Of a stretch of DNA of 64,000 bases, positions 25,272 through 47,186 are shown in pieces. Below the pieces are notes generated by a model. It worked only from the letters and a program-made list of their open reading frames with translations. It did not search any database and was not told the DNA's origin. The position numbers were made by a program, and so were the translations under genes. Within the stretch, counting starts at the first letter, position 1, and every line of letters begins with the position of its first letter. This DNA is from Candidatus Delongbacteria bacterium (GTDB lineage: Bacteria; UBA4055), in the NCBI GenBank assembly GCA_016938275.1, contig JAFGUZ010000169.1, positions 1,734 to 65,733 of the forward strand. Direction: 5' to 3'.

Positions 25272-26882
25272 ATGAAAACAATAATCCTAATCTTACTTCT
25301 AAATGTTGTAAGCAATATGTTTGCTTCTCAGAAGGGTGAGATAACTCTATTTGAAGAAAATTGGGAAAGTTACCCTGAAGAGGTTTTACCCTTACCTGAG
25401 TATGACCCAAACTGGAAAACAATAATTCACCCTAATGGATCTTATTTTGGTATATGGGCAATTGCCCATGGAGGTACTAGATCTGTTTCCCATTCGACTG
25501 TAGGTCAAGTTTCTGGAAGTCCAAGAGATTGGCTAATTTGTAAGAAACCTTTGGTAATTCCAGAGTATGGTGGAGAATTATCCTTTTGGGCATTATCTTA
25601 TGAACCTCAAAACATAGAAATAAGAGTTTCTGAGACAGTTTATACAGATACGACCGCATTTTCAAGTTATCTATTCAATGAGTCATTTCAGTCCGCTTCA
25701 TTTGCAAAACAAGTGTTTGATTTGACTCCATATGCTGGAAAAACAATCTATATTGCCTGGAAAAGAAAAGGTCCATATGGTTATGCACATGGATCAAATT
25801 GGATTATAGATGACATAAAAATGATTGGGTACACTGAAGATCTTGAAGCTCCAATTTGTGAATATATTACTGGAAATATTGGTCTTGTTGGAAAATCTGT
25901 TTTTTTAAGAGCTAAGATGAAAGATCAAACTAATATCGAATCAGTTTATGGTAGAAGTGAGATTAATGGACAAGTTTCAAGTGATATACTTCTCAGTGAA
26001 AGTGAGCCAGGTAGTGGTGTATATATATTTGAGGTTCCTTACGTAGATGGTGAGTATACAGGATCTGTAAAATTTATTACTAGGGATACTTTAGGAAATG
26101 AAGGAATAACTGAAAGTTTTGAAATAAACTGGAAAAACTATCTTTTATCTGAAAATTTTGAAGATTTGTTTCCTCCTATTGGTTGGTACAATAATGGTTG
26201 GAAAAAAATGAATCAATATGGAGCAAACAATTCATCATGTGCATACAGCAATTACTTAGATGACGGAGAACTTGAATCATCACCTATTAAATTAACAGAT
26301 GATATGCAACTAAGTTTTTATTGTGCGAATAGGTATCTTTATAAGAATTCAAAAATTGAAGGAATAGACACATTGTTTTGTGAACTAAAAACTATAGGTG
26401 AAGATGATTGGACAATTGTAACTATTCATTCTCCTGAAACTCCAGATGAGTCTCATGTGAAATATGTTATCGATCTTAGTCCAGTGAGTGGAGAGGAGAT
26501 TATTCTTCGTTGGAGACACTCTACTAATGGATCATTTCAAGCCGAAGGAGCTCTTGTAGATAGTATTCTAGTTTATAAGAATAACACAACTGCAATTGAT
26601 GATGATGTTACATTTGCAAATACAGCCAAAATAATTGGAGCTTATCCGAATCCTTTTAATCCTACGACTACAATTTCTTTTGAAACTTCAATGAATGGAA
26701 ATGTTAGATTAACAGTTTTTAACTCAAAAGGAGAATTTGTTTCTGAATTAATTAACAAGAATCTAAATAAAGGAAATCATAAAGTTAATTTTGATGCTAC
26801 TTCATTACCTACAGGTGTTTTTTACTATACACTGGAAACGCCTTTCGAGAGTTTAACGAACAAAATGGTATTGGTAAAATAA
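25272..26882 (+). CDS. Secreted protein with a T9SS C-terminal domain
   Basis: Signal peptide; C-terminal IGAYPNPFNPTTTISFETS…TGVFYYTLETP…NKMVLVK. Confidence 0.7.
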   Translation: MKTIILILLLNVVSNMFASQKGEITLFEENWESYPEEVLPLPEYDPNWKTIIHPNGSYFGIWAIAHGGTRSVSHSTVGQVSGSPRDWLICKKPLVIPEYGGELSFWALSYEPQNIEIRVSETVYTDTTAFSSYLFNESFQSASFAKQVFDLTPYAGKTIYIAWKRKGPYGYAHGSNWIIDDIKMIGYTEDLEAPICEYITGNIGLVGKSVFLRAKMKDQTNIESVYGRSEINGQVSSDILLSESEPGSGVYIFEVPYVDGEYTGSVKFITRDTLGNEGITESFEINWKNYLLSENFEDLFPPIGWYNNGWKKMNQYGANNSSCAYSNYLDDGELESSPIKLTDDMQLSFYCANRYLYKNSKIEGIDTLFCELKTIGEDDWTIVTIHSPETPDESHVKYVIDLSPVSGEEIILRWRHSTNGSFQAEGALVDSILVYKNNTTAIDDDVTFANTAKIIGAYPNPFNPTTTISFETSMNGNVRLTVFNSKGEFVSELINKNLNKGNHKVNFDATSLPTGVFYYTLETPFESLTNKMVLVK

Positions 26883-26907
26883 AATTTTATCATAACTCAA
26901 TGCGACA

Positions 26908-26945
26908 AAGATCTGATCTTTACAAGTTCAGATCTTTTTTATTTG
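26908..26945 (+). terminator. Rho-independent terminator
   Basis: AGATCTGA-TCTTTACAAGT-TCAGATCT followed by TTTTTTATTT. Confidence 0.6.
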
Positions 26946-27142
26946 GTTTTAATGAATTGATATCAAACCCTAATCTTTGGTTGCCAAGCTTCAAACAACA
27001 AAATGAAGAGTCTTATTAGGGAAAATCTCATTAGATCTAGCGATATCAATTAAACTTGAAAAAAGTTAAGTTAGCCTTACTATGCGTTATAGTTATCATC
27101 TGTGTAACTCGTTTCATGCTAATTTGTTAAACATATTGCGTA

Positions 27143-28645
27143 TTATTTTCTGAAACGACTTTTTTTTGAGACTTTACTTCTATCTTCAAAAACAACCATA
27201 TCCGTATCTTCCAGATATGTATCAAAATAGAAGTTATTGGTATTATCATTATATTTCTTTAAAGTTTTTTCAATACGATGAAGAGACTCTTCCATCATAA
27301 GTATTAAATTTGATACTTTTATATCAAAGTTCAATGAATTTGTATATGATAAAAAAAGCTCTAAACTTCCTTTTAAAATTGAAAGAGGTTGATTAAGCTC
27401 ATGGTTTGTAGTTGCTATCATTGCCAGTACAGAATTTCTCTTTTCAAGTCTTACAATCTCTTCCTGAGATTGAATAAGTTTTCTATTTAATTCTTCAAGT
27501 TTAGCAACCAAATCTGCTAACTCTATATTCTTAAGTTTGAATACTTCAGATTCAGCTTTTGCTAATAAAGTTTCGTTTTCTTTATTCTTTAGATCGAATT
27601 TAATCTGAAGTTCCTCAATTATCCTATTTTTTGATTCCTCCTGTATAATCTGAGATAAATCGAAACCATCTTTAAAATATTGTAAAGAGTTCGTTAAATC
27701 TTTTTTTAGTTCATAACATTCCGATAAATTCATATAAAGAGACATTTGAAGATCTTGATAATGGTTTTCTTCTGAAATTTTTTTGCTTTTCAAAAAGTAA
27801 GCTATTGACTCATCATAATTTTTCAAAAATTTTTCCACAAGGCCCAAACTTCTATAGCCTATTGCCAATGTTCTTGGATCACCAATAATTAAATATAATT
27901 TGAGAGCTTTTAAATAATATTTTCTTGCAGTTTTAAAATTTTCAGTTTTCAATGACAAAGCTCCAAAATTTGTAAAAATTGCTCCCTTTATTCTTATATC
28001 AGAAGTTTTCTCTACTATTTCAAGTGCTTCAGCGAGGTAATTTTCTGAGCTCTGGTAATCGTTTTCATCTTTACACAATAAACCTAAATTGCTAAGTGAA
28101 GATGCTATAGATGTTAAATCATCAGCTTTTCTTCTGAGTTCTAAACTTTTGACAAAACATTTTTTTGCTTCGTTAAGTTTTTTCTGATGCCAATAAACTC
28201 TCCCAATTAGATTCATGGTTAATGCGAATTTTTGAGTATCATTTTCTTTACTCTCATAAAAATTATAAGCTTTATAAAGATTTATTAAAGCTGATTCGAT
28301 TTTATTTTGATCAGTCAAAATTCGCCCAAGAATATTAAGCGAATCACCATAATATTCATAAATTTCAAGACTTTCACACAACTTGATTTGCTTTTCACAA
28401 TAAGTAACAGAATTTTGAATATCCCCATTTTCGAAATAATATTCACCTAACTTGTTAAGTATAATTAGATAGGTTCTATCGTCACATAACTTCGATGATA
28501 ATGATTCGATATGTAATAAAATTGAGTAATAGTTTTTATGTGTTTTATTACTTACATTCTCGAGATAGTTAATAATTATTTTTTTATTTTTTGAATAAGA
28601 ATCCTCTTTCAGTTCAAGCAAAATATCATTGTTTTCTAATGTCAT
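27143..28645 (-). CDS. TPR-repeat protein with a HisKA-like phospho-acceptor domain and no ATPase domain
   Basis: Long TPR array, a coiled coil, then the H-box LAMIATTNHELNQPLSILKG. The 90 aa after the H-box contain no N/G1/G2 boxes. Confidence 0.5.
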   Translation of the reverse strand: MTLENNDILLELKEDSYSKNKKIIINYLENVSNKTHKNYYSILLHIESLSSKLCDDRTYLIILNKLGEYYFENGDIQNSVTYCEKQIKLCESLEIYEYYGDSLNILGRILTDQNKIESALINLYKAYNFYESKENDTQKFALTMNLIGRVYWHQKKLNEAKKCFVKSLELRRKADDLTSIASSLSNLGLLCKDENDYQSSENYLAEALEIVEKTSDIRIKGAIFTNFGALSLKTENFKTARKYYLKALKLYLIIGDPRTLAIGYRSLGLVEKFLKNYDESIAYFLKSKKISEENHYQDLQMSLYMNLSECYELKKDLTNSLQYFKDGFDLSQIIQEESKNRIIEELQIKFDLKNKENETLLAKAESEVFKLKNIELADLVAKLEELNRKLIQSQEEIVRLEKRNSVLAMIATTNHELNQPLSILKGSLELFLSYTNSLNFDIKVSNLILMMEESLHRIEKTLKKYNDNTNNFYFDTYLEDTDMVVFEDRSKVSKKSRFRK

Positions 28646-28879
28646 AGTTCATCCTATTAGTAACTATTAATTTAATATAACTGCAATTCTACTTTTTTAT
28701 ATTTAAATTGTTCGAGGCTTCAATCATTTGTTTTAAAAGAGATGCAACTTTCAACCAGATGATATCAATTGTTGTTTTCAAGAATTATGTGAAATAATAA
28801 AAAATCATTAATTTCACTCTTAAATATTTCTCTCAGTTTTATAAAACTACAAAAAAACTAAATTGTTATTTTTTCATTT

Positions 28880-29400
28880 CTTCTGAGTTGATTGATTTTT
28901 TTATCATTTCAATAATCTTGATCGCTTTATACGCAGATTTAATTTCTAAATATTCACTTTTTTTATTATTTACTTGGTAACTCAATACGTGACGCATTAC
29001 TTCTTCATAATCATCTAAAAACAAAGTTTTAATTTCCTCTTTTTAGCCATTTTCATAATATATTTCAAATTCTTCAGTTTTTTTTCTCCGTAAGAGACAT
29101 GAAACATTAATAATCCTTTCTCATACATTAATTCAAATCCAACAATAAATGGTGAGTTTTTGGGTAAGTTAGAAACACTTTCTACTATTAATAATTTATT
29201 ACTTTCCTCAAATTTAAAAATACTTACTACAATAGATTTTTTATCTATATCAACACCTTGAGTAAATAATTTTTAAGGAACTCCAATTGTTTCCAAAATA
29301 AATTTGATATGACCACATTTCTAAGAACGAGGTGTGATTGGACCAATGATTCAATTTTCGGGTCATGATCAGATGACTGAAATCGTTTGATCAACCTTTT
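28880..29400 (-). pseudogene. Decayed gene remnants: frameshifted and stop-interrupted fragments of an unknown gene
   Basis: Minus-strand translation gives peptide runs (…GVDIDKKSIVVSIFKFEESNKLLIVESVSNLPKNSPFIVGFELMYEKGLLMFHVSYGEKK…, …FLDDYEEVMRHVLSYQVNNKKSEYLEIKSAYKAIKIIEMIKK…) split across three frames. Confidence 0.3.
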
Positions 29401-29440
29401 TTGTATTGAATAGAAGATTCTTTATTAAATAAATGCAAAG

Positions 29441-29770
29441 ATATCTTGCACCAGCGTAGGTTTATCCTCGCAAAGAAAGGTAATATCTGATGCCAGTCAA
29501 ATGTTAAATCATTTAAATGTAAAAGTAACGATAATCTTTTCAAATAAAAGCTCTTGGTTTATTTTAAGATGGATAGAAACAGAGGTTGAGCTAGCAAAAC
29601 TAGCCGTTTTCAACAGCTACCCCCTACATATTGTAAATTAAAATGTAAAATTCTGTTCTCTGTTCCGTAAAAGCTATTTCCTCAAGGCTGATAAGCTCAG
29701 CTGTTCAACCTTTTTCTTTAAAACTTTATTACAAAAAAGGCAACCCCATTACCAGCGATGAAATCGCTGG
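29441..29770 (+). repeat. Repeat element copy A (about 330 nt), ending in the hairpin CCAGCGATGAAATCGCTGG (29752..29770) plus a T-run
   Basis: The 5' 65 nt (TATCTTGCACCAGCGTAGGTTTATCCTCGCAAAGAAAGGTAAT…) and the 3' hairpin are about 80% identical to an inverted copy at 63635..63845. The same hairpin recurs at 47414..47432. Confidence 0.6.
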
Positions 29771-29849
29771 ATTATTTCTCATTTTTTTTAATAAAAAAAT
29801 AATATTTTATTACATAATTTAGTTAAAATGTTTGGAATGCAATTTTTTA

Positions 29850-32800
29850 CTATTTTACTTGTATATCTTTATCGTCATTCCATAAACCTTTATCACCTTT
29901 TAATGTTCCTCCAATACGGATAGATCCGTTAGGATTAATCGATGGAACTATGGTGTTCACTGGTGGATCGTTAATTGGAAGTATCTCTATAGTATAATTG
30001 TAGATTTCACTATCAATTACCCCATCATTTACTTTTACATTTACGTCTAGATTACCAAAAAAGTCTATGTTTGGAACTATTTGCTGATTATTAAGTGAAT
30101 AATTTTCTCCTGACAATATAATCATACTAAAATCTAAAGGGTTTGAATTATCAGGATCAATGATAGTTAAATCAGATATGCTTATGCTAAAACTTTGTTC
30201 TTCAAGAAAACTTTTTGAAGCAAAATTAGTAATAATTGGTTTGTCATTTACTGGAGTTATTTCAATTATTCTTGATATTGCCAAAGAACTTGAATCACCA
30301 TCAAAAATCACAAAAGATATTGTTCTATCCAAATCTTCAGGATTATCAGATGTGTTATAGTATTTTATAGATCTCAATGCACTAAGGTAATTTTCTTTAG
30401 AAGAAGAACCTGAAAGACCTAGTATTCCTGTTTCATTATCATAATTTCCTGTTATCCCATTTTGATCTTGAAATTGAAGAATATCCTCTCCTGTTACGAA
30501 ATTTGAAGCTATTGAAATAGTTGCACTTTCTATTGAGGTGTCATCTACATCGGTAATTTTTAGAGTAGATGAAATTATTGTCGCGTCTTGGTTTTCAGTG
30601 TAAGAAATATTAGATGCTTCAATCTCAGATAGAATAGGTTTGTCGTTAACAGCAATTACGACAATCGGTCTTGATAATTCATTAGAAGAACCAGATTCAT
30701 TATTGATAGTAATTCTCACAGTTCGTGGAGTAGTAGTCGGAGTATCTGAATTATTTATAAAACCTAAACTTCTTACAAGAGTTAGATAATTGGAATAGTT
30801 TGACGATCCACTAAAAGTAAAAGTACCATTAACTTGCGATAGAACTATTCCAGATGAGGGAGGAATATTATAATATAACTCATCTTCACCGTTCATATAT
30901 CCATCTATTACAACATTCATTCCCAGCAAATTAGGATCATCATTATTGATAATATTTACAGTTCCACTAAAACCATAAATATGATTTTCAAGACAACCAA
31001 TAGGATTAGGATCAAAATTATTTATCACAAGAAGATCATTAACTGGGGATACATTGACTGTCAAAGTATTAAATTCTGTTGAATAATCAATACCATCATT
31101 AACTTTGTAATAAAGGGATAATTTGCCATTTCCATAAACATTTGCTGTAGGTTTAAATTTAATTTTAGACAAATCTTCTTTCCAAATTACTTGATCAATT
31201 TGAATTTGTTCATCATTTTCAGCAATATCATTTCCATTTTGATCAAAAAACAACGTACCATCTTTATAAAATCCAACGATTTTAATAAAATGCATAGTTT
31301 CAGTAGGGTCATCACTATCAAAGGATATATCGGTTGCATTCAGAGTAAATAAACCATCTTCTACTATAGTTTTTGTAAAATCTGATGAAGATGGAGGGGT
31401 ATTGGTAGGGATTTTAACAAATTTTATCTTACCAGGATTTGAAAACACAATTGTATTATTGTCTATTACAAAGCTGTTCTGTTTAATGTAAGTAGTTGTA
31501 GAAAAAAGATTAGGAAATTCAACATATTTACATTGCATATATCTACCTTCATCGAAGTTAAATAGGGATAAACGGTCACATTCGGATATAATATTTTCTA
31601 AATGAGCGATATATGAGTTAGAAACAGCTGCAACCTTGAAATTACCCGGATACTCATGAGTTTTCACAAAAATATTATCTTGATTTTTATAAACGCTAAC
31701 TATTCCGTCTAAAACTGTTAATATTGAATTTTCATCAGAGTATGAAAAGGTCGTGCCAGAGATAGTTTGTACAAGTGTAAATGAGTTATCTTGTTTTTTG
31801 AAAACATAAATATGAGCACCAAAATCATGAACAATATAATAATCATTGAGAAGTGTGACTTTTGGAGAGTAGGAATGTAAACTAGATGTTAAAAATGTGA
31901 AATCACTCTCCTTTACACACAAATTGTTTGTAAGGTCATACGTTGTAATTCTAAACATCTTATTATTAGATAGATGATTTAAGCTAGTACTGATAATCAA
32001 TTTATTGTTTTTAACTAATAATCTTCCACCAAAATATAAATCATCGTTCTCGTTAAATATTGTTTGCTGTAATTTCCATATATTGTTACTTTTTTTAAAC
32101 AAATAGACATAATCATAATCGCAGGTTCCTACAGCAATATATTCTCCATCAGTAGATATATTAGCACCAAATTTTTCACCTGGAATATATGGAATATATT
32201 TTGGAGATACTAATTGACTATCGAATACCCAGTCATTATTAATTTTGTTATAGATATTGACTACTCCATCAACACCATGTCCATATAAATTTGGCTCACC
32301 AATTACAAGAAGATTATCATTTATTTCTATAGGATTTAATTCATATTCTGAATTATAACTTGCAACATCAGCTGAAAACAATTTTCTTTGTTGTATCCAT
32401 GATTGCCCATTAAAATAAAAACTTGAAGCAGAACCAGAATCAGATCCAAATTCGTCATCTGCATAAGCTCCACATAATAATTGATCTCCCTTTAGACAAA
32501 TTACGGAACCTAATCTATCTCCTGGTTTGCGATTATAATCCATAGTATAATCTAAATAGTTCCATATTCCATCTTCTTTATGATACGTATAAACTGCTCC
32601 AGTTAATCCATAAACAGCATAAGCACCAACAGCAAAATTGTATCCAGATAAGGAAACAGAACAACCAAAAAATTCATAAGCAGCTGGATTTGGCTTTTGT
32701 ACTATTTTTTTTTGAACCCATACATTATCAATTTTTTCAAATATATATGCAGCACCAGCATAAGTATTTTTGCCATACGCACCAACTAATATTGTTGTGT

Positions 32801-33590
32801 TATCTATTGAAACACTAAAACCGAAATAATTATAAGCCAATCCATCTGATGCTAACAAATTCGCTTCTTGTACCCAATTGATTCCATCAAAACGAAAAAC
32901 GTAGGCAGATCCAGAATCTGCTCCTCTATCATCGTTTTTACTTGCTCCTACAACCAAATCATTTCCAGATATGGATATACTTTCTCCAAAGGCATCAAAT
33001 TGTCCACCGTCTGAAGCCATAATCTTCGATTGGTATTCCCAATTAGAATTGTTAAGCTTGTAGGTAAACACTGCTCCATTTTTTGAAGTTGAAAATGGAG
33101 CACCAACAACGATATAATGGCCATTTATAGCAATACTCGTTCCAAATTTATCTTCTGACTCTCTAGCTGGTGCTGTCAATTTTTGAACTTGATTCCATCC
33201 ATTTTCATTTAGAAGGAAAACATATGCAGAACCTGCACTATTATCATCACCAGGTGCACCAACAACAGCGTAGTTTCCGTATATTGCCACACTACTTCCA
33301 AATTTATCTCCAGCATATCTATCTGAAGCAGTTAATCGTTTTTGTCGTGACCACTGGTTTCCATATTTGTAATGAATATATGCAGAACCCATATCTCCAT
33401 CATCTCCATAAGCACCTACTATTCCAACATCATTAGATATTGAAACACTACATCCGAAATAATCATTAGAATCAGCATAGTTTTCTAAACTTATCTCACT
33501 CTCTTCCCACCCTGCAAAGATGTATGTAGACAAAAATAAAATAATCATAATCACAGTTATCGCTCTTATCTGATAAAAACTATTCATCAT
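29850..33590 (-). CDS. Giant secreted adhesin-like protein (1246 aa): N-terminal FG-GAP/integrin-alpha-like repeats followed by cadherin-like (VNDxP) domains; no T9SS tail
   Basis: Signal peptide; at least seven repeats of the type DYFGCSVSISNDVGIVGAYGDDGDMGSAYIHY; C-terminal modules with PVNDLLV, AVNDKPIL, PVNDKPII, PINDPPV. Confidence 0.7.
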   Translation of the reverse strand: MMNSFYQIRAITVIMIILFLSTYIFAGWEESEISLENYADSNDYFGCSVSISNDVGIVGAYGDDGDMGSAYIHYKYGNQWSRQKRLTASDRYAGDKFGSSVAIYGNYAVVGAPGDDNSAGSAYVFLLNENGWNQVQKLTAPARESEDKFGTSIAINGHYIVVGAPFSTSKNGAVFTYKLNNSNWEYQSKIMASDGGQFDAFGESISISGNDLVVGASKNDDRGADSGSAYVFRFDGINWVQEANLLASDGLAYNYFGFSVSIDNTTILVGAYGKNTYAGAAYIFEKIDNVWVQKKIVQKPNPAAYEFFGCSVSLSGYNFAVGAYAVYGLTGAVYTYHKEDGIWNYLDYTMDYNRKPGDRLGSVICLKGDQLLCGAYADDEFGSDSGSASSFYFNGQSWIQQRKLFSADVASYNSEYELNPIEINDNLLVIGEPNLYGHGVDGVVNIYNKINNDWVFDSQLVSPKYIPYIPGEKFGANISTDGEYIAVGTCDYDYVYLFKKSNNIWKLQQTIFNENDDLYFGGRLLVKNNKLIISTSLNHLSNNKMFRITTYDLTNNLCVKESDFTFLTSSLHSYSPKVTLLNDYYIVHDFGAHIYVFKKQDNSFTLVQTISGTTFSYSDENSILTVLDGIVSVYKNQDNIFVKTHEYPGNFKVAAVSNSYIAHLENIISECDRLSLFNFDEGRYMQCKYVEFPNLFSTTTYIKQNSFVIDNNTIVFSNPGKIKFVKIPTNTPPSSSDFTKTIVEDGLFTLNATDISFDSDDPTETMHFIKIVGFYKDGTLFFDQNGNDIAENDEQIQIDQVIWKEDLSKIKFKPTANVYGNGKLSLYYKVNDGIDYSTEFNTLTVNVSPVNDLLVINNFDPNPIGCLENHIYGFSGTVNIINNDDPNLLGMNVVIDGYMNGEDELYYNIPPSSGIVLSQVNGTFTFSGSSNYSNYLTLVRSLGFINNSDTPTTTPRTVRITINNESGSSNELSRPIVVIAVNDKPILSEIEASNISYTENQDATIISSTLKITDVDDTSIESATISIASNFVTGEDILQFQDQNGITGNYDNETGILGLSGSSSKENYLSALRSIKYYNTSDNPEDLDRTISFVIFDGDSSSLAISRIIEITPVNDKPIITNFASKSFLEEQSFSISISDLTIIDPDNSNPLDFSMIILSGENYSLNNQQIVPNIDFFGNLDVNVKVNDGVIDSEIYNYTIEILPINDPPVNTIVPSINPNGSIRIGGTLKGDKGLWNDDKDIQVK

Positions 33591-36061: not shown

Positions 36062-37135
36062 TTACTTCACAGTAATTCCGTTGCTATCATCGTCTAAAAC
36101 AACATGTCCAATTATTTCAGCTCTCTCATAACCTTCAGATCTAACTCTTTTTAAAAGCTTTTCTCCTTCATTTTCAGGAACGCTAATCAGTAATCCTCCG
36201 GAAGTTTGGGCATCGTACATCAACATTAGCTTGGTAGAATCCTCTACTGATGTTGTAACATATTTTTTAGCAAAATCTCTATTACTGTATGATCCGGACG
36301 GGAATAAACCCATACTTCCCATATCGTATGCACCCGACATAAATGGGATTTTTGCTGAATCTATAATAATTTTCAAATCATCGTGAAGCATCTCTTTTAA
36401 GTGACCTAACAATCCAAATCCTGTAACATCTGTCATCCCATTTACCCTGTGATCTAAAGCCGCAATAGAGCCAAGTTTATTCAATTGTGACATATAAAAA
36501 GCAGCCTCTAGCATATCTTTCTCATCGCACATATCAGCTTTTATAGCCGTAGTGAGTACACCCGTACCAATAGGTTTGGTTAATATTATTACGTCACCTT
36601 CCTTGATCCCACAATTTTTTATAAATCTTTTAGGATGAACAATTCCAGTAACAGACATACCAAATTTCATTTCAATATCCTCTACAGTATGACCACCAAG
36701 TATTACTCCACCAGCTTCTTTAACTTTTGAAATACCACCAGCTAAAATCTCTCTCAACATCTCTGCACTAATGTGACAGGAATCGTAAGCTACAACATTA
36801 AGTGCATTAAGGACTTTTGCTCCCATAGCAAAAATATCAGATAGACTATTAGCAGCTGCGATTTGACCATAAATATATGGGTCATTAACAACAGGAGTTA
36901 TAAAATCTACAGTTTGAACAATAGCGATATCATCACTAATACGGTAAATTCCGGCATCATCATTACCGTCAAATCCGTGTATGAAATCAGGTGAGACAGG
37001 ATAGTCCAATCCATGTAATACCTTGTGTAAGTCCGACGGACTTAATTTACCGGCTCAACCAGCAGCTCTTACATAGTTGGTTATCTTAATCTCTTTACCT
37101 TCATCGTCCAGATACTTTTTTATTTTGGGTAACAT
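36062..37135 (-). CDS. selD: Selenophosphate synthetase (selenide, water dikinase) SelD, a selenoprotein with an in-frame UGA (Sec) at 37055..37057
   Basis: The ORF-track protein (36062..37009) aligns to SelD from about residue 40 onward (DDAGIY…TVDFITPVVNDPYIYGQIAAANSLSDIFAMGAKV…MTDVTGFGLLGHL). Reading upstream through a TGA gives MLPKIKKYLDDEGKEIKITNYVRAAG-U-AGKLSPSDLHKVLHG, which matches the E. coli N-terminus [22 protein letters not shown] with Sec in place of the catalytic Cys. The start ATG is at 37135 or 37138. Confidence 0.85.
37028..37044 (-). promoter_or_regulatory. SECIS-like recoding hairpin just 3' of the selD UGA
   Basis: mRNA reads UGA-GCCGGUAAAU-UAAGUCCG-U-CGGACUUA; a perfect 8-bp palindromic stem begins about 10 nt after the UGA, the spacing expected for bacterial SECIS elements. 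Confidence 0.5.
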
Positions 37136-38885
37136 CATAGCTTTTTACCAATTCGTAATGTTTTTTTAACTCTTTTTTTGAAAAATAAGATAGTAGTTCT
37201 TTTCTATTTCCAGGTTTTTGGAAACCGAAGATTTTATCTAATAGTTTTCTTTCGTCTACATTTTTTATAACAATTAGCTCTTCACCTGAATAAATATTTC
37301 TTTCAGTGTTGTAAACTATACTTGATAAAGATAAAGGTAATGGAACAAAAGGTCTAACTTCTGCCACAATAAGATTGTTTTCTATTACAAATTGCAATGT
37401 GTCCAGAACTGTATCAAGTGTCTCTCCAGGCATACCAGAGGTTAAAACAATTTTCAAAGTTTTATTAACACTAAACTCACCACATTTTTTCTTGAATTTT
37501 GTAACGAATTTTTTCAAGGGTTCAGAAGGAGGTAAATCATTGGCTTTTCTAACTATATCGGAGAAAGATCCGCAGTAGAGAGTAAATGTTGTACCTGTTC
37601 TTTTCTTCAAAATATCCTTTAAAAGGTCATCACTTTGGTTCAAAATTCTGTAATCGAAGGTATTGTCAAAATAAACTTGTCTAATACCTTTGAAATCCGA
37701 AATATCATCCATAGCTTTTGTAAATCTTGGAACATTTACAGAAAGATTTGAGCAAAAATCTTTACCTGCAGTTTCAAGACAAGTGTATCTTACACAGGAG
37801 TTACACTTATATGGCTTACGAATATCCAAAGCGTATTGATCACCCTTTCCATAGCCAGGATTCTTTAAAACAGATTTAAAATATTTACTTTTTCTTGTTC
37901 TGTCAGAATCCATCACCAAGGCTCCAATTCCTCTCTGTGAAATATCTCTGCCCTCGTGAATATAGGTATTACCACTAAGATCACCGATCTGAGTAAATAA
38001 TCCATTAGAAAGAACTTTTTCAAAGAATGGGATTTCTCCATTGATACCGAAATGAGGTTTATTTCTATAGGATTGATTAAAAATTATTTTCAACTGATCA
38101 TTATCGTATGGCAAATGGTTTTTATTTATAACTATATATCTGTCAAGTACTTTTTGGAATAGACCGTTTGAACCAGGATGAATATTGGCAAGGAAGGTTC
38201 TATACATAGAAATAAATGTTTCCTTATTTTCCCTGCATTCATCATAAGAAGGTAGTTCTTCATATCCTACGGGTTTATCTTTCGATATATAGGAAATTCC
38301 AGGTTGACCATAAAGACTTTCAAAACCAAGATCACTCTTCATGTGGTTGGCTGTTCTTTGAACATTTAGCTCCAATTTATCAAAAATTAAAAGATCTGCT
38401 TTAGAGTCGAAGAGAACAGGCTTTCTGATTTGATCACCCCAAAAATCATAGTGTGTAATTCTTCTGCCAGAAGCTTCTGCACCAGCTAAGACAACTTTAC
38501 AATCTTTGTATAGCGATTTTAATTTTGAAGTGATTGTAATGATGGCTCTGTCGGGTCTGTTTGATCTCTCTCCATCTTTTTGGAATGGATCAGAACTTCT
38601 AAACTTTTTAAAAGCACTGTAATTCATTGTCATCGAGTCTTCTTTACCTGTTATTAAGAGAAAAAAAAGTTCCGGTTTCCCGAATTTTTTAAAATCTTCA
38701 TCCTTACCAGGGTTGGAGATTATTACCGTTCTCATACCTGAACTTACCAAAACTCTTCCCACTCTTGCAATTTCATAATAGGGGTGATCTACATATTCAT
38801 CACAAGTAACGATTATTACATCTGCTTTTTTCCATCCATTTTTTTTCATTTCGTCATTATTAACGGGAAGAAAATCGGTCTTCAT
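37101..38885 (-). CDS. YgiQ/UPF0313-family protein (radical SAM N-terminal domain homolog) lacking the canonical CX3CX2C motif
   Basis: DVIIVTCDEYVDHPYYEIARVGRVLVSSG…KPELFFLLITGKEDSM…RPDRAIITITSKLK…VLAGAEASGRRITHYDFWGDQIRKPVLFDSKADLLIF aligns closely with the E. coli YgiQ N-domain. At the position of RGCFGGCSFCSITEHEGR it has FTQIGDLSGNTYIHEGR, with no Cys. Its 3' end overlaps the selD start by about 35 nt. Confidence 0.65.
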   Translation of the reverse strand: MKTDFLPVNNDEMKKNGWKKADVIIVTCDEYVDHPYYEIARVGRVLVSSGMRTVIISNPGKDEDFKKFGKPELFFLLITGKEDSMTMNYSAFKKFRSSDPFQKDGERSNRPDRAIITITSKLKSLYKDCKVVLAGAEASGRRITHYDFWGDQIRKPVLFDSKADLLIFDKLELNVQRTANHMKSDLGFESLYGQPGISYISKDKPVGYEELPSYDECRENKETFISMYRTFLANIHPGSNGLFQKVLDRYIVINKNHLPYDNDQLKIIFNQSYRNKPHFGINGEIPFFEKVLSNGLFTQIGDLSGNTYIHEGRDISQRGIGALVMDSDRTRKSKYFKSVLKNPGYGKGDQYALDIRKPYKCNSCVRYTCLETAGKDFCSNLSVNVPRFTKAMDDISDFKGIRQVYFDNTFDYRILNQSDDLLKDILKKRTGTTFTLYCGSFSDIVRKANDLPPSEPLKKFVTKFKKKCGEFSVNKTLKIVLTSGMPGETLDTVLDTLQFVIENNLIVAEVRPFVPLPLSLSSIVYNTERNIYSGEELIVIKNVDERKLLDKIFGFQKPGNRKELLSYFSKKELKKHYELVKSYDVTQNKKVSGR

Positions 38886-39029
38886 TTTATCTCCAATAAA
38901 TTTGTCTCAATATACTATGAATGTGCATAAAAGTCAAAAAGGACACATTATAAATATACCATTATTCAGTCAATTTATAGTAAAATGAGGTTGCCCACTA
39001 TAAGTTTCACAGACAACCCCATATTATCA

Positions 39030-39758
39030 CTATTGATTAAATCTTTTTTTACAAAAATCTAAATCTTCCAACGAGTTAATTCCATAAAGTGAATAAGGAT
39101 CATCAACAGTAAAGCTATCAATTTTAATATTATCTTCGATCATCAATTTAATCACATCAGGTAGATAATACTCATTTTGAGAATTATTATTATCTATTCT
39201 GTTTAGATATTTTAATAACAATTTATTATGAAAACAATAGTGTGAAGTGCTAACTTCGTTGATCATCAATTCCGAACTATTTGCATCTTTCTCTTCAACT
39301 ATTTTCACTATCTCTCCATTGTTGTCTCTTACCACTCTTCCATATGGTGGAGGTGTAACAAATTTAGCTGTAAGGAAAGTACAACCAGCTAAAGATTTTT
39401 CATGGACAGAAATAAGTTTTTTAACGATTTCTCTAGATATGAATGGAGCATCTCCAACTGTAATCAATGTATTACCATCAAAATCTTTCAGCCAATTTTC
39501 AGCACATAAGACAGCGTGTCCAGTGCCTAGCTGATCTTTTTGGATAATGTATTCATGGCATTTATTGCCAAGTTCTGATTTAATAGCATCAATATTCTCA
39601 GGACTTACAATTATTGCAATTTCATTCTCAGGCGATGAATATGCATCTACAACCATCGATATCATAGTCTGATCATTAACTTTTACTAAAACCTTAGGAA
39701 CATCTGTTTTCATTCTCGTTCCCTTACCTGCAGCAAGGATAACAACTTTATTTTTCAT
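39030..39758 (-). CDS. Sugar-phosphate/phospho-alcohol nucleotidyltransferase (GlmU N-terminal/LicC-like)
   Basis: VVILAAGKGTRMKTDVPKVL (G-x-G-T-R signature) and QKDQLGTGHAV resemble GlmU; there is no left-handed beta-helix acetyltransferase domain. Confidence 0.65.
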   Translation of the reverse strand: MKNKVVILAAGKGTRMKTDVPKVLVKVNDQTMISMVVDAYSSPENEIAIIVSPENIDAIKSELGNKCHEYIIQKDQLGTGHAVLCAENWLKDFDGNTLITVGDAPFISREIVKKLISVHEKSLAGCTFLTAKFVTPPPYGRVVRDNNGEIVKIVEEKDANSSELMINEVSTSHYCFHNKLLLKYLNRIDNNNSQNEYYLPDVIKLMIEDNIKIDSFTVDDPYSLYGINSLEDLDFCKKRFNQ

Positions 39759-41005
39759 TATATTCTCACTTCTTCCACTGTTCCATTTTTACGAGATTTT
39801 TCTGATCTGAAAACCATGAGGTGACTCATCAGAGTTTCATCAGCACCAGTTAGAATTTTTGAACTGTCACCACTAGATACAGCTTCGATAAAGTTTTCCA
39901 TTATACCACTATCTCCACCACCATGACCAGATAGCTTGTCAATACCTTCTTGGGAATCAATTTTTTTAACAGAATTGTCTCTGAAATTTATGATTTTGAT
40001 ATATCTTCCATCGCCTCTTATCTCGCCATGTGTACCGAAAATAGTAGTTCTTCTAGCTGTATATTCATTGAAAGCAGTCATTGTAAAATTTACTGTAGAT
40101 CCATCATCGAATGACATAGCGACAACCTGATTATCTACAACATCATTATCACACTCATAAACACATCTTCCATAAGGTCCTTCCTCTAAAGCTTTATAAA
40201 CACCATCGTAGCTTATATCGTCAGTTAAAATTGACAGAGGCCAACCTTTTACACCCTTATCAAAAAATCCCAAATAGATCTTTTTTGCAGAATAAGGGCA
40301 ATCCTTTTCTATATTCTCCGGACACATTGTACATTTGTCTGCTGCACCAGCCGGCTTTTCACTCTTTTTAAAATGATAAAGAGAGCCAAATGAAGCAACT
40401 TTACTACATTTAGAAGGCATGATATAATTTATCCAGTCCAAATCATGACAAGATTTCGCTAAAAGCATGAAGGATGATTCTTCCTCATTTCTCCAGTTGC
40501 CTCTTACAAATGAGTGTGCCTGATGCCAATATCCAACAGGTTCAAGTCTTTGCATAGATACTATTTTGCCAATAATACCAGTGTTTAAAACTTCTTTTAA
40601 CTTCTTTGTGAATGGAGTATAACGCAAAACATGACAAACAGACAAAATTACTTTATTGTCTTTACAAGCTTGAACAATCCGTCTGCATTCTTCTTCAGAA
40701 GGAGCCATTGGTTTTTCAAGAAGGATATGATATTTTTTTTCTGCAAACTTAATTGCAGGCTCTGTGTGCATTTTATCCTGAGTTGCAATAATTACTGCAT
40801 CTGCATGTTTTTCTTTATCAGCCAAACCTTCCCAACTATAAAAACATTGTTCTTCATTAAGATTAAACATGTTTTTAATTAGGTTTCTCTGAAAATCTCT
40901 AGGCTCTGCGACTCCAACGATAACTGCTTTATCTGGATTGTTTTTTATATAATTTGCATAAATTTGCCCTCTGTCACCAGCACCAGCAAGTATAACTTTT
41001 ATCAT
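39758..41005 (-). CDS. Gfo/Idh/MocA-family NAD(P)-dependent oxidoreductase with a Cys-rich insertion
   Basis: N-terminal Rossmann MIKVILAGAGDRGQIYA…EKP; insertion CTMCPENIEKDCPYS…CVYECDND. It overlaps the start of the downstream nucleotidyltransferase by 1 nt. Confidence 0.7.
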   Translation of the reverse strand: MIKVILAGAGDRGQIYANYIKNNPDKAVIVGVAEPRDFQRNLIKNMFNLNEEQCFYSWEGLADKEKHADAVIIATQDKMHTEPAIKFAEKKYHILLEKPMAPSEEECRRIVQACKDNKVILSVCHVLRYTPFTKKLKEVLNTGIIGKIVSMQRLEPVGYWHQAHSFVRGNWRNEEESSFMLLAKSCHDLDWINYIMPSKCSKVASFGSLYHFKKSEKPAGAADKCTMCPENIEKDCPYSAKKIYLGFFDKGVKGWPLSILTDDISYDGVYKALEEGPYGRCVYECDNDVVDNQVVAMSFDDGSTVNFTMTAFNEYTARRTTIFGTHGEIRGDGRYIKIINFRDNSVKKIDSQEGIDKLSGHGGGDSGIMENFIEAVSSGDSSKILTGADETLMSHLMVFRSEKSRKNGTVEEVRI

Positions 41006-41106
41006 TTTTCTCCCCTGGAAATATTTGTTGTTTAAATAAAAAAACTTAATTGCTTCATAGCAAGTTAATTTTGATCATTTTTTTTGTATATTTATCAAAA
41101 AAAGCG

Positions 41107-41553
41107 ATGGAGTTTCGTATGGAATCAGGAAGGTTAGAAGAACTGTTGACCAATGCCAAGAATCAAGTTAAGAATGCTTTGAAGTTTATGATAAAAACTG
41201 ATTTCAGTAGTTATGCAGAAGGTCGGTATGAAGTAGATGAAAATATGTTTTTTATAGTAAATCAATATCAAACAAAAGAAACCGGACTACTTGAAGTGCA
41301 TAGAAAATATATTGATATACAATTTATGATTTCAGGAAGTGAAAAGATTGGTTTTGAAAAACTTAGAGATCAGGAAATTTCTCAAGTCTATAATACTGAA
41401 AGAGATATTGCATTTTTTTATGGCAATTTTGAGACACTAGTATTGACACCTGGTTTTGCAGCTATTTTTTATCCTGATGATCTTCACGCACCAGGTCTAA
41501 TAAATGAAAACAAGGAAAGTATAAAAAAAATTGTAATGAAAGTTAAAGTATAA
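41107..41553 (+). CDS. YhcH/YjgK/YiaL (DUF386) family protein
   Basis: Cupin-like DUF386 pattern (…YIDIQFMISGSEKIGF…FFYPDDLHAPG); start set at an internal Met because the ORF-track start adds a hydrophobic leader. Confidence 0.5.
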   Translation: MEFRMESGRLEELLTNAKNQVKNALKFMIKTDFSSYAEGRYEVDENMFFIVNQYQTKETGLLEVHRKYIDIQFMISGSEKIGFEKLRDQEISQVYNTERDIAFFYGNFETLVLTPGFAAIFYPDDLHAPGLINENKESIKKIVMKVKV

Positions 41554-43498: not shown

Positions 43499-44404
43499 AT
43501 GACACAACGAAAACTTATAAGCTTTGACTGGGCAATGAAAAAAATGCTGAGGAGTAAAGCCAATTTCGATATTCTTGAAGGGTTCTTATCTGAACTTTTA
43601 TCAGACGATATAAAAATTTTAGAAATACTAGAAAGTGAAAGTAATAAATCTTATGATAATGACAAGTTTAATAGAGTTGATCTATTAGTAAAAAGTAAAG
43701 ATGATAGTATTATAATAATTGAACTTCAATATGATTATGAATATGATTTTATGCTCAGAATGCTTTATGGAACAAGTAAAATTGTAACAGAGCATATGAA
43801 ACAAGGTGCTCCGTATTCAGAAGTAAAAAAGGTAATATCTATAAATATTGTTTACTTTGATCTGGGACAAGGCAAGGATTATGTTTACAAAGGAACAACC
43901 AATTTTATTGGTCTCCACGAAAAAGACGAATTACAATTAAGCCAAATTCAAAAGGATAAACTAAAGAGAGAATCTATTTATCAACTATATCCTGAATATT
44001 ATCTTTTGAAAATCAATAATTTTAATGACTTTGCAAAAAATACACTAGATGAGTGGATCTACTTTCTGAAAAATGAAGAGATAAAGCCAGAATTTAAAGC
44101 TAAAGGTTTAAAAGAAGCTAAAGATAAATTGGATATTATGAAACTATCTGGTAGCGATTTGCAATCATACAATAGACATAGAGAAAATTTACATTATGCT
44201 GCTAGTATGGCTGAATCTGTTAAGATTGAAGCAGAAGAGAAGATTTGGAAAAAAGGATTAGTTGAAGGCGAGAAATTAGGTCTTGAAAAAGGTGAGAAGT
44301 TAAAAGCTATTAAAATTGCTAAAAACTGTCTAGAAAAAAAGATGGATTATGATACCATTTCTTTTTTAACTGGTTTGTCTGTAGAAGAGATAAGAGGATT
44401 GTGA
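43499..44404 (+). CDS. Rpn-family recombination-promoting nuclease / putative transposase (PD-(D/E)XK, YhgA-like)
   Basis: RVDLLVKSKDDSIIIIELQYDYE nuclease core; C-terminal EGEKLGLEKGEKLKAIKIAKNCLEKKMDYDTISFLTGLSVEEIRGL repeat tail is characteristic of the family. Confidence 0.7.
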   Translation: MTQRKLISFDWAMKKMLRSKANFDILEGFLSELLSDDIKILEILESESNKSYDNDKFNRVDLLVKSKDDSIIIIELQYDYEYDFMLRMLYGTSKIVTEHMKQGAPYSEVKKVISINIVYFDLGQGKDYVYKGTTNFIGLHEKDELQLSQIQKDKLKRESIYQLYPEYYLLKINNFNDFAKNTLDEWIYFLKNEEIKPEFKAKGLKEAKDKLDIMKLSGSDLQSYNRHRENLHYAASMAESVKIEAEEKIWKKGLVEGEKLGLEKGEKLKAIKIAKNCLEKKMDYDTISFLTGLSVEEIRGL

Positions 44405-44415
44405 AGAGTCTGTAG

Positions 44416-44450
44416 AGGCGTTATTTATAACGCCTTATCCATTTTAATTT
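44416..44450 (+). terminator. Possible terminator
   Basis: AGGCGTTAT-TT-ATAACGCCT hairpin followed by an interrupted T-rich tail. Confidence 0.4.
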
Positions 44451-45313
44451 TAATTGCCCTGTCATCTTGAACGAAGAAAGAGATCTTTTTTAGCCTCGAA
44501 TTACACGAATGAAATACCAGAATACAATATTCTATAGAAGGACGTTTAGACATGGATAATCTCACAATTCTGTAAATCATGGTTCAAATGATCCAGATGT
44601 CAGACACCTTTGAGGTGGCAGACATCTAAACTCTCGCGATGCCTGAAAGGCACAAAATGATTATAGCTTTGAAAGAAGCAAATGAAACAGAATATTAGCT
44701 GATGTTGTTAAGATATAGTGAATCCATAGATTTAAAAAGCTATGATTCCATTTATCCTGAAGCTGAATCACTAATAAAACTTTTAGTAAGTATAGTAAAT
44801 ACTACGAAAGTAAAATTACAATCTTAACATTTTCCATTTTCAATTAGATAAGTAGACATTAACGAGAAAATTAAGCTGACTGGCTTTTACATGGAACTAT
44901 AAAAAAGACTATTGAAGAGGAACTTAGGTTCGATTTGAATGATAAAATTGAAGAATTTAAACTCATTGCTGAAAACTGTGTGAACAATCCTGATCTTGGT
45001 AAAGGTCTTTCTATGTACGGGAAAATTGATAGATTACGATTTGATAACTTCTATATCGATAGTGATAGAATTACGCTGTATATTTATGCCAACGGTCATT
45101 CTGGTATTATGATGAAATAGTTTTTAAGATTTTATTAATTAGGTGAAGTAGATATACTCTTAATATTAACTGTTATAAGAAATTATTTTAGGAGATTTGT
45201 TAACAAATATTGTATATTTTTAAATAATTTAAAAAAATATTGCGAGATCATTTTTCTGTTTATATAATGTTTATGTTATCAAGTTGAAATAGCAATGTGT
45301 ACAAAAGTTAACT

Positions 45314-45724
45314 TTGTATTCAAAGCGGAATGGAGCATACATAAAAAAGCTAATTGTAATTTTTAATCATGGAAAACTTACTGAAGATCAAGCGTATTAT
45401 GCTTATGATGTATTGAAGATTGGTGAGATTATTTATATGAATGAAGAGTTGAAAAGTATTTGGTCAGAAATTGATCCTTTTGAAGATGTAGTAAATGTTG
45501 AGAAAATTGAAGAATTCCTTTTAAAATCTAGTAAACCGTACGACTATGTATTAGTTCAAGGAGAGTTTGGAGCTACATTCAAAACTGTGAACTTTTGCCT
45601 AGAAAATGAAAGAATAGCAATCTATGCAACAACCGAAAGAGTCAGTAGGGAAATGAGAAATGATGATGGAAGCGTTTCAAAGACAAGTGAATTTAAGTTT
45701 GTTAGGTTTAGGGAGTATGGGTAA
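45314..45724 (+). CDS. Hypothetical protein (136 aa)
   Basis: ORF only, in an island-like region; no recognisable motif. Confidence 0.3.
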   Translation: MYSKRNGAYIKKLIVIFNHGKLTEDQAYYAYDVLKIGEIIYMNEELKSIWSEIDPFEDVVNVEKIEEFLLKSSKPYDYVLVQGEFGATFKTVNFCLENERIAIYATTERVSREMRNDDGSVSKTSEFKFVRFREYG

Positions 45725-45812
45725 TAGGAATTAATTAAAAGTTGAAAAACGTATATCTTAACAAAAATCAAATAGTGAAATCAATAGTTCTTGCAAAAGG
45801 GTAAATTACAAT

Positions 45813-47186
45813 ATGACATTAGACGAGATAAAAAGGTTTATAGAACTGGGTGAAGGTTTTCATCTTGAGTTGAAAGAATCATTAGATAAAAATTTAATAG
45901 AAGAAGTTTGTGCTTTTGCTAATTCCAGTGGCGGAAAAATTATACTCGGAGTTACAGATAAAGGTATTATAAAAGGAATCAATACAGATAATGCCACTCG
46001 TTCAAAAGTACAAGATATGTTACAACAGCTTGAACCTTCTTTACCTATTATAATCAGTGTGCTTGAAAATTTAATAATAATTGATGTACCTCAGGGAACA
46101 GAAAAACCTTATGGTTGTTCAAGAGGATTTTTTTTAAGAATTGGTCCAAATAGTCAAAAATTATCAAGAAATGAAATCGTTAGTTTTTTTGAAAAAGAAG
46201 GTCGAATTCGTTTTGATGAATTAGAAAACAGAAAAGCTGATTTCAGTAATGACTTTGACGAGAATGCATATAAGAAATTTATTCAACTTGCTAATATAAC
46301 GCCGTCTATTGAAAAAACATATCTTTTAAAAAACCTTGACTGCTTAAATGAGAATAGTAAACTGACTAATGCTGGAGTACTCTTTTTTACAAAATCAACT
46401 GATTTCTTAATAAATCATGCAACTGTTGTATGTGTTTTATATAAAGGAAATGAAAAACTTCATATCTTAGATAAGAAAGATTTTAAATCCAGCATCATTG
46501 AAAATATTGAAAACGCTGTTCTTTTTGTACAAAGACATACAAATCTTGCCTATAAAATAGAGCATTTACAAAGAGAAGAAATACCGGAAATACCAGAACT
46601 AGCTTTAAGAGAATCTATTATTAATGCTGTTTGCCATCGAGATTACTTCCAAAAAGGCTCTAATGTTATGATTGAAATATTTGATGATAGAGTTGAGATA
46701 TCAAATCCTGGAGGAATACCTTCTGAATTAGATCCGGCTGATTTTGGCACTAAAAGTGTAGCTCGGAATCCTGTTATCGCTTCATTATTACATCGAGTTG
46801 ATTATATTGAGAAAATAGGTAGTGGAATAAACAGGATAAAAAATTCTGTCAGTGATCAAAACAGTTGTACAGTTGAGTTTAAGCTTACTGGCTTTTTTAC
46901 AGTAACTTTTAAAAGAGTAGATATGATTATGAGCAGTAAAACTTCGGAGAAAACTTCGGAGAAAACTTCGGAGAAAACTTCGGAGAAAACTTCGGAGAAA
47001 ACTTCGGAGAAAATATTAAATTTGTTAAAAGAAAACTCAACAATTACTATTCAGGATTTAGCAAATTTACTCAATAAATCTACAAGGGCTGTAGAGATGC
47101 AGATTAGCAAACTAAAGTCTGAGAATAAAATTTTAAGAATTGGTGCCGATAAAGGTGGATACTGGGAAGTTGTCGAAAAAGAATGA
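45813..47186 (+). CDS. AlbA_2 (Schlafen-like) + HATPase_c_4 putative transcriptional regulator with an internal SEKT x6 repeat and a C-terminal wHTH
   Basis: N-terminal FHLELKESLD…AFANSSGGKIILGV (AlbA_2); ALRESIINAVCHRDY…GSNVMIEIFDDRVEISNPGG (HATPase_c_4); C-terminal TIQDLANLLNKSTRAVEMQISKL. Confidence 0.6.
   Translation: MTLDEIKRFIELGEGFHLELKESLDKNLIEEVCAFANSSGGKIILGVTDKGIIKGINTDNATRSKVQDMLQQLEPSLPIIISVLENLIIIDVPQGTEKPYGCSRGFFLRIGPNSQKLSRNEIVSFFEKEGRIRFDELENRKADFSNDFDENAYKKFIQLANITPSIEKTYLLKNLDCLNENSKLTNAGVLFFTKSTDFLINHATVVCVLYKGNEKLHILDKKDFKSSIIENIENAVLFVQRHTNLAYKIEHLQREEIPEIPELALRESIINAVCHRDYFQKGSNVMIEIFDDRVEISNPGGIPSELDPADFGTKSVARNPVIASLLHRVDYIEKIGSGINRIKNSVSDQNSCTVEFKLTGFFTVTFKRVDMIMSSKTSEKTSEKTSEKTSEKTSEKTSEKILNLLKENSTITIQDLANLLNKSTRAVEMQISKLKSENKILRIGADKGGYWEVVEKE
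46941..47012 (+). repeat. Perfect 12-nt tandem repeat (ACTTCGGAGAAA) x6, encoding (TSEK)6
   Basis: Six identical in-frame units within the linker of the 45813..47186 gene. Confidence 0.9.

Follow-up and report, generated by a model that had tools for sequence, protein, structure and literature searches.

A selD-overlapping YgiQ-family gene without the radical-SAM cluster motif in Candidatus Delongbacteria: a likely non-radical descendant of its family

Members of the radical S-adenosylmethionine (SAM) superfamily "by definition" carry three Cys residues that ligate a SAM-binding [4Fe-4S] cluster (PMC9477430). We analysed a gene of the YgiQ (UPF0313) family of this superfamily in which the corresponding CX3CX2C motif is missing. 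The gene lies on a 64,000-nucleotide stretch of DNA from a Candidatus Delongbacteria bacterium (contig JAFGUZ010000169.1 of GenBank assembly GCA_016938275.1; this whole stretch is called the window below), and its 3′ end overlaps the start of selD. The locus raises the question of what such a protein can still do: whether it remains a radical enzyme that holds its cluster by other residues, is a decaying relic, serves the adjacent SelD or a canonical YgiQ, or has been kept for a role other than radical chemistry. The evidence described below makes it likely that the gene product is functional and descends from the YgiQ/UPF0313 radical-SAM family but is no longer a radical enzyme.

In SFLD and RadicalSAM.org, the YgiQ family forms the "uncharacterized protein family UPF0313" subgroup (PMC9477430), which agrees with an earlier reading of this DNA (the original prediction) that described the function of the parent family as not known. 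The only noted feature of Escherichia coli ygiQ is its co-expression with translation genes (PMC6412132). The searchable literature contained no functional study of YgiQ/UPF0313 and no description of Cys-less YgiQ homologues. A mention of "YgiQ" in PMC8950095 cites work on a P-methylating radical SAM enzyme of Shewanella denitrificans and is not used as evidence here.

Loss of the cluster motif and erosion of the core

We compared the window protein with the family models and with E. coli K-12 YgiQ (b4469; reference sequence extracted from NC_000913.3). Members of the YgiQ family (TIGR03904, UPF0313) combine PF08497, PF04055, and PF11842. The window protein matched PF08497 at residues 5–291 (252.5 bits, E 7e-75, cut-off 25) and gave no other Pfam match, even at E≤10. 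The TIGR03904 model SAM_YgiQ aligned over positions 1–552 of 558 with 352.8 bits (E 3e-105), which is below the curated equivalog cut-off of 462.35. BLASTP against E. coli YgiQ gave 26% identity (E 2e-68) with collinear homology over residues 5–573, so that the similarity noted for the N-terminal domain in the original prediction in fact extends from end to end; the window protein (594 amino acids (aa)) is shorter at its C-terminus than E. coli YgiQ (739 aa). These scores indicate that the window protein is a YgiQ homologue below the equivalog level. The F-x-P-x-P...Y motif at the start of the DUF3362 (PF11842) region was kept despite the lack of a PF11842 match, and the closest relative, P0002, gave a sub-threshold PF11842 score (20.4 bits against a cut-off of 27.6). 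The name given to the protein at NCBI is "hypothetical protein", because the radical-SAM model was missed.

In the full-length alignment, the segment FTQIGDLSGNTYIHEGR of the window protein stands opposite RGCFGGCSFCSITEHEGR of E. coli YgiQ, which bears out the earlier claim that CX3CX2C has been replaced by a Cys-free stretch. BLASTP paired IGDLSGNTYI----HEGR of the window protein with RGCFGGCSFCSITEHEGR in frame and with conserved flanks on both sides, and a Cys-free loop was found at the same position in an alignment with 32 canonical homologues. Among the best 120 homologues, CX3CX2C was present at this position in 112 and was missing from the 8 best only. The difference from the canonical motif is judged to be far beyond chance. 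A frameshift or assembly error was considered and ruled out, as the original prediction had held for the frameshift: the reading frame is preserved on either side of the loop, and the loss is a trait of a whole clade (see below). The same protein sequence was found in the Candidatus Delongbacteria metagenome-assembled genome (MAG) (locus tag JXR48_13525) and on a second contig from an independent Logan assembly, and it is therefore not an assembly artefact.

The PF04055 (Radical_SAM) model gave no match at E≤10 in the window protein, P0002, P0005, or P0123; both controls matched, the canonical P0009 with 25.4 bits (gathering score 29.5) and E. coli YgiQ with 46.2 bits. The core has also lost motifs outside the cluster loop. 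The window protein and the other Cys-less members lack D[IV]GGP[ST]AN, SG[IV]R[YF]D, SGQLK[VI]APEH, and the H of HPG, and the HQG motif is likewise gone. Presumably, to judge from general knowledge of radical-SAM proteins, D[IV]GGP[ST]AN is the GGE-type SAM-binding strand. The position of SGQLK[VI]APEH is occupied by TGTTFTLYCGSF. We then counted the columns that are at least 90% conserved in the 32 canonical YgiQ proteins. The window protein kept 46 of the 65 conserved columns of the N-terminal domain (71%) and 17 of the 54 conserved columns of the core (31%), and 30 of these 54 core columns were lost in essentially all Cys-less members. The surviving core positions were G301, G312, R318, G344, C364, C369, C378, P486-G487, F513, P515, P517, and Y525. 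Invariant residues of the N-terminal domain include D22, D29, Y31, D33, H34, D83-S84-M85, R110, E137, R141, H145, D160, and D164. From the loss of the motifs, reductive cleavage of SAM to the 5′-deoxyadenosyl radical is predicted to be absent in the window protein. The cluster Cys, the core motifs GGP[ST]AN, SGxRxD, SGQLK[VI]APEH, and HQG, and the PF04055 signal are all gone, and for this reason the protein very probably no longer performs radical chemistry. The coordinates of the features are given in Table 1.

Table 1. Features of the YgiQ-like gene and of selD in the window.
Feature	Coordinates	Strand	Remarks
selD (selenide, water dikinase)	36062..37138	(-)	358 codons including in-frame TGA (selenocysteine) at 37055-37057 in AAGUAGK
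Hairpin AAGUCC-GUC-GGACUU, putative selenocysteine insertion sequence (SECIS)	37029..37043	(-)	12 nt downstream of the selD UGA
YgiQ-like ORF (open reading frame) without radical-SAM CX3CX2C	37101..38885	(-)	594 aa, ATG start
FVPLPLS, kept F-x-P-x-P motif	37329..37349	(-)	Residues 513-519; start of DUF3362-like tail
TGTTFTLYCGSF in place of family-invariant SGQLK[VI]APEH	37563..37598	(-)	Residues 430-441
Four-Cys motif C361-x2-C364-x4-C369-x8-C378	37752..37805	(-)	Presumed metal or iron-sulfur (Fe-S) site; homologous to the canonical auxiliary Cys motif
NPGYGKGDQ in place of D[IV]GGP[ST]AN	37836..37862	(-)	Residues 342-350
Degenerate cluster loop FTQIGDLSGNTYIHEGR	37947..37997	(-)	Residues 297-313; replaces HRGCxGGCxFCxxxxHQGR; no Cys; AF2 confidence locally lower
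PF08497 (Radical_SAM_N) domain	38013..38873	(-)	Residues 5-291; Rossmann/flavodoxin-like, weakly cobalamin-domain-like; 71% of canonical-invariant positions kept
Promoter-like TTGACT-17-TATATT (10/12)	38909..38937	(-)	In the 144-nt gap upstream of the YgiQ-like ORF; consensus match only

The Cys-less clade, its four-Cys motif, and its constraint

The 8 best homologues, most of which are labelled Delongbacteria, lacked CX3CX2C and matched PF08497 only; they comprise the protein itself, one protein at 53% identity, and six at approximately 34%. An exhaustive search through 1.84 billion cluster representatives yielded five further Cys-less ones (P0121–P0125), and the Cys-less group formed seven clusters at 50% clustering (P0002, P0007, and P0121–P0125). 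Neighbour-joining analysis of the 13 Cys-less proteins together with 55 canonical sequences recovered the former as monophyletic in 100 of 100 bootstraps, set apart by a long stem. The monophyly indicates a single ancestral loss, and it shows that the clade of Cys-less members for which the original prediction had proposed to look does exist. The named members came mostly from Candidatus Delongbacteria MAGs. Subclade B keeps a relic of the first Cys (HRGCLND), and the window subclade (P0001 and P0002) has none.

Two scans for further members were made. A metagenome scan with the clade-specific pattern KEDSMxMNY returned subclade B and the known PDWJ01 contig, and no further genomes of subclade A. 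A scan of GTDB genomes with a profile of the 13 Cys-less proteins gave only canonical loci among the matches listed, with peptide patterns common to canonical YgiQ. Outside the 13-member clade, independent partial or complete loss of CX3CX2C was seen in three YgiQ lineages (P0158, P0183, and P0192). P0158, in which the four auxiliary Cys are retained, is possibly the sister of the clade (86 of 100 bootstraps, with a risk of long-branch attraction), and P0183 and P0192 keep one or two Cys. These sequences indicate that degeneration of the radical site is recurrent in the YgiQ family.

The Cys residues that the window protein does retain were examined next to those of the family. The downstream group KCNSCVRYTC...DFC (C361, C364, C369, and C378) aligned with the auxiliary Cys motif of the family, C-x(2-9)-C-x4-C-x5-C, located after the second barrel strand; between the last two Cys there are 8 residues instead of 5. 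The retention of this group had been proposed in the original prediction and is upheld by the alignment. C364, C369, and C378 aligned with Cys that are invariant in 40 of 40 sequences. Within the clade, the four Cys were the only conserved ones (11 of 13 members), no other column of the 13-member alignment exceeded 7 of 13 Cys, and no triad is available for cluster binding. Three suitably spaced Cys could not be placed at the cluster site from elsewhere in the sequence. Thus, of the two possibilities raised earlier, "non-radical, or alternatively ligated", the former is supported by the motif losses and the missing PF04055 match, and the latter did not stand because there is no substitute triad.

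The conservation of the four Cys nevertheless bears on the view that the protein is still a radical-SAM enzyme, with a cluster bound by the four-Cys loop or by other residues. In canonical YgiQ, only three of these Cys are strictly invariant, which would be compatible with a cluster with one open Fe site, and ThiC, Dph2, and PhnJ bind clusters through non-canonical Cys arrangements (PMC9477430). These three enzymes also lack CX3CX2C but have cluster-binding Cys triads of their own, and the window protein has none. The homologue of the four-Cys motif coexists with CX3CX2C in every canonical member, which marks it as an auxiliary site and not a replacement, and a non-canonical radical site would also have to be reconciled with the loss of all other family-invariant core motifs and of the PF04055 signal. 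In addition, two clade members (P0123 and P0124, at loci L010 and L109) lack all four auxiliary Cys, P0123 having 2 Cys in 588 aa. We regard a non-canonical radical enzyme as quite improbable. The N-terminal invariants are present in both P0123 and P0124, and this suggests that the N-terminal domain is what the protein cannot do without.

The selective constraint on the two halves of the protein was estimated from P0001 and P0002. The proportions of nonsynonymous and synonymous differences (pN/pS) were 0.25/0.67 for the N-terminal domain and 0.35/0.66 for the core, corresponding to ratios of nonsynonymous to synonymous rates (dN/dS) of approximately 0.18 and 0.31, respectively, values that are rough because the synonymous sites are saturated. 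The ratio of core identity to N-terminal identity was 0.98 in canonical pairs and 0.56–0.89 within the Cys-less clade. These values indicate that the former catalytic domain is relaxed but not free-running and that constraint acts mainly on the N-terminal domain. The faster evolution of the core, together with the members that lack even the auxiliary Cys, could be read as the decay of a functionless relic on its way to becoming a pseudogene. However, the ORFs were intact (563–594 aa) in 13 lineages at 33–53% identity, pN was well below pS in both halves, the structural model was confident across the core, and the monophyly of the clade, with 100% bootstrap support, implies that it persisted for a long time once the motif had gone. 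A decaying relic is therefore the least credible of the explanations considered here and is highly improbable.

The AF2 model, built from a 40-sequence alignment, had a pLDDT of 91.7 and a pTM of 0.91. The only weak stretch of the core was the former cluster loop (residues ~300–320, pLDDT 68–78). Strands and helices alternate over residues 297–527, where the elements of a (β/α)6 barrel are present, and the AF2 model and Foldseek together place the radical SAM superfamily's partial (β/α)6 TIM barrel in the protein. The top Foldseek matches in the PDB were all radical-SAM enzymes (MgmA, MtaB, TokK, MiaB, AprD4, and RimO). At the sequence level, the family profile reached only MgmA, RimO, and MiaB among the PDB sequences, and the single window protein gave nothing significant against them. 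The N-terminal domain modelled alone had a pLDDT of 89, and its best match, the cobalamin-binding region of TokK, was weak (E 3e-4, TM 0.33). E. coli YgiQ gave a weak match to the B12-binding PF02310, and the window protein gave none. The model indicates an architecture of a cobalamin-domain-like N-terminus followed by a radical-SAM barrel, with the fold intact.

The overlap with selD and the genomic neighbourhoods

The start of selD (ATGATG, 37138/37135) lies within the last ~12 codons of the YgiQ-like ORF, giving an overlap of ~35 nt. Because of the in-frame TGA, an ORF finder shows only a truncated 315-aa selD fragment with a TTG start; this part scored 314.2 bits against TIGR00476 (cut-off 125). 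Upstream of the fragment, the frame continues as ...ITNYVRAAG-U-AGKLSPS..., so that the loop G-x-G-[C/U]-x-x-K of SelD appears with selenocysteine (Sec) at the position of the TGA. The organism must therefore have Sec-decoding machinery; no tRNA gene was found within the window. At the corresponding locus of P0002 (L001), a hairpin at ~9850–9863 (GCCC-GUC-GGGU) differs from that of the window by a U-A pair that has become C-G. In the window, minimum free energy folding of the region that follows the selD UGA gave no significant structure (z −0.7), and an Rfam search of 34–42 kb of the window gave nothing meaningful. With a short shared hairpin and one compensatory change in its support, the assignment of the selD hairpin as a bacterial SECIS is plausible.

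P0002 (53% identity; contig PDWJ01001284, GCA_002754885.1) is the only close relative of the window protein, and its locus has the same ygiQ-like/selD overlap and the same Sec codon, with different flanking genes on both sides. We regard the two genes as an operon in the lineage of the window, with the YgiQ-like gene first. A promoter-like site upstream of the YgiQ-like ORF (Table 1) fits this view. The 3′ end of the YgiQ-like gene overlaps the start of selD, and for this reason the two genes very probably share a transcript and are coupled in translation. The position next to selD given in the original prediction was correct, selD being immediately downstream and overlapping; the clade-wide linkage for which it had asked was not found beyond the window and this one relative.

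At least 10 other clade loci had no adjacent selD. In the sister lineage, the neighbours of the P0125 gene encode RNase HII/D-Tyr deacylase on one side and a chemoreceptor on the other. The next gene after that for P0121 codes for a GT2 glycosyltransferase, and the one after P0123 for an HD-domain protein. The genes of subclade B and of P0122 lie in a block made up of a histidine kinase, a divergently oriented KdtA-like Glycos_transf_N gene, the YgiQ-like gene, a GT28_C-like glycosyltransferase, and an Omp85/POTRA protein. This block occurred in at least 7 lineages (the loci of subclade B and P0122 are L003, L006, L009, L093, L096, L101, L102, and L104) and persisted down to 45% identity in the YgiQ-like protein and 33% in the Omp85-like protein. 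Such neighbours indicate an outer-membrane or lipopolysaccharide-type setting and not one of selenium metabolism. In regard to canonical YgiQ, none of the 80 loci among the matches listed had selD within 10 kb, and these loci showed no conserved neighbours beyond lineage-specific synteny.

The overlap suggests a further explanation, in which the protein is a selenium-handling accessory of SelD whose metal or Fe-S site or N-terminal domain takes up selenide or another selenium donor and hands it on to the Sec-containing SelD. The overlap is conserved between the window and L001 although the flanks differ on both sides, both SelD proteins contain Sec, and MiaB and RimO carry polysulfide on their auxiliary cluster, according to the titles of PDB 7mjz and 4jc0. 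Nevertheless, the link occurs in two related genomes only; P0125, P0121, P0122, P0123, and subclade B with its at least 7 lineages are not linked to selD, nor are the canonical loci, and the window held no other selenium-related genes close to the YgiQ-like/selD pair. An accessory role for SelD is therefore unlikely. A more specific version, in which the Cys-less YgiQ is a selenium chaperone and an Fe-S or metal site with a free position gives selenide or perselenide to the coupled Sec-containing SelD, is less likely still. If it were true, selenophosphate synthesis would have a selenium donor of a new type in this protein, and chalcogen handling might be the ancestral business of the YgiQ family, which is structurally closest to the sulfur-inserting MiaB and RimO.

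Comparison with known systems and the proposed role

The window protein shares with the YgiQ family its full-length collinear homology, the N-terminal domain, the auxiliary Cys, the HPG-like and F-x-P-x-P motifs, and the predicted two-domain fold. It differs in having none of the radical-site motifs and no PF04055 or PF11842 match. The methylthiotransferases MiaB, RimO, and MtaB (PDB 7mjz, 4jc0, and 9a6d) ranked near the top of the structural matches (Foldseek E 1e-6 to 2e-8); like the window protein, they have an N-terminal Rossmann-like domain, a radical-SAM barrel, and an extra Fe-S site, which is presumed in the present case. However, the methylthiotransferases keep CX3CX2C and hold the auxiliary cluster in the N-terminal domain, whereas the extra Cys of the window protein lie in the barrel domain; the window protein has no TRAM domain and shares only ~10% identity with them. 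The cobalamin-dependent (class B) radical-SAM enzymes TokK and MgmA (PDB 7kdx and 9ccb) were among the top structural matches of the whole model, and TokK was the best for the N-terminal domain. These are active radical enzymes, and the likeness of the window protein in the N-terminal domain is weak, as described above, with no PF02310 match. In HemW, a HemN-like haem chaperone, the radical-SAM fold serves mainly for binding and transfer and not for radical catalysis (PMC10114718). HemW is a loose precedent: it keeps a [4Fe-4S] cluster and weak SAM cleavage, whereas the window protein has no cluster motif, and the two families are unrelated within the superfamily.

A conserved fold with a dead core is a pattern common among pseudoenzymes. 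This pattern, seen here in the fold and the N-terminal domain, would fit a catalytically dead paralogue acting as the partner or regulator of a canonical YgiQ whose gene lies elsewhere in the same genome. No canonical YgiQ was found within the window, and no named canonical homologue in the best 120 is from Delongbacteria. We consider a partner of this kind unlikely, to about the same degree as an accessory of SelD.

We favour the reading of the gene as a functional but non-radical descendant of the family. An ancestor of the clade lost the CX3CX2C motif, which holds the SAM-cleaving [4Fe-4S] cluster, and the former active-site shell of the barrel was remodelled after this loss. The barrel fold, the PF08497 domain with nearly all of its invariant polar residues, and in most members the four-Cys site were kept under purifying selection. 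The protein would be unable to bind SAM to a cluster or to make the 5′-deoxyadenosyl radical. It most likely works by way of the parts that it has retained: the ligand or macromolecular partner of YgiQ proteins is probably still recognised by the N-terminal domain, and a metal or Fe-S centre is probably still bound at the four-Cys site. The resulting role would be that of a binding, scaffold, carrier, or regulatory protein and not of a radical enzyme.

Several points weigh against this reading. The label "non-radical" is based on sequence logic, and the clusters of ThiC, Dph2, and PhnJ are a reminder that non-canonical Cys arrangements exist. The loss of the four-Cys site in P0123 and P0124 means that this site is not essential to the role of the clade. 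The dN/dS values are affected by saturation, and the link to selD rests on two related genomes.

If the non-radical reading holds, the clade is a natural separation-of-function variant, in which the radical machinery has been discarded and the N-terminal domain is nearly intact. It suggests that the PF08497 domain, perhaps in concert with the four-Cys site, has a radical-independent role, and it offers experimenters a handle on what YgiQ proteins bind; YgiQ itself is a widespread "y-ome" protein that is annotated only as "radical SAM". In regard to annotation, a PF08497 match ("Radical SAM N-terminal") is not in itself evidence of a radical-SAM enzyme. For selenium biology, the coupling of the gene to a selD that encodes Sec, seen in two genomes, offers a weak lead.

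The window contains several other features. An intact cobalamin-type radical-SAM gene with PF02310 and PF04055 lies at 61292–63130 (-) and carries CPYNCSFC at ~62629; the organism therefore uses canonical radical-SAM chemistry elsewhere. Genes at 51245–57242 (-) and 57503–58336 (+) encode multihaem cytochromes c (663 aa and 275 aa; cytochrome c3/c7, MtrC-like) and 4Fe-4S ferredoxin-domain proteins, which suggests an extracellular or periplasmic electron-transfer module. Upstream of the YgiQ-like ORF, a sugar-nucleotide-type gene set at 39030–41553 comprises genes for a nucleotidyltransferase (NTP_transferase/MobA-like) and for a GFO/IDH/MocA oxidoreductase, the stop of the latter overlapping the start of the former, as well as a divergently oriented DUF386 (YhcH/YjgK/YiaL) gene. 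At 43499–47186 (+), a few kb away from the locus, a PD-(D/E)XK "transposase"-family gene and a gene for a Schlafen AlbA_2/HATPase_c_4/HTH protein may be mobile or defence-related insertions. Several large secreted proteins with Por_Secre_tail (the sorting domain of type IX secretion) are encoded at 17831–33590 and 56415–57242, together with a 1246-aa FG-GAP/cadherin-like protein.

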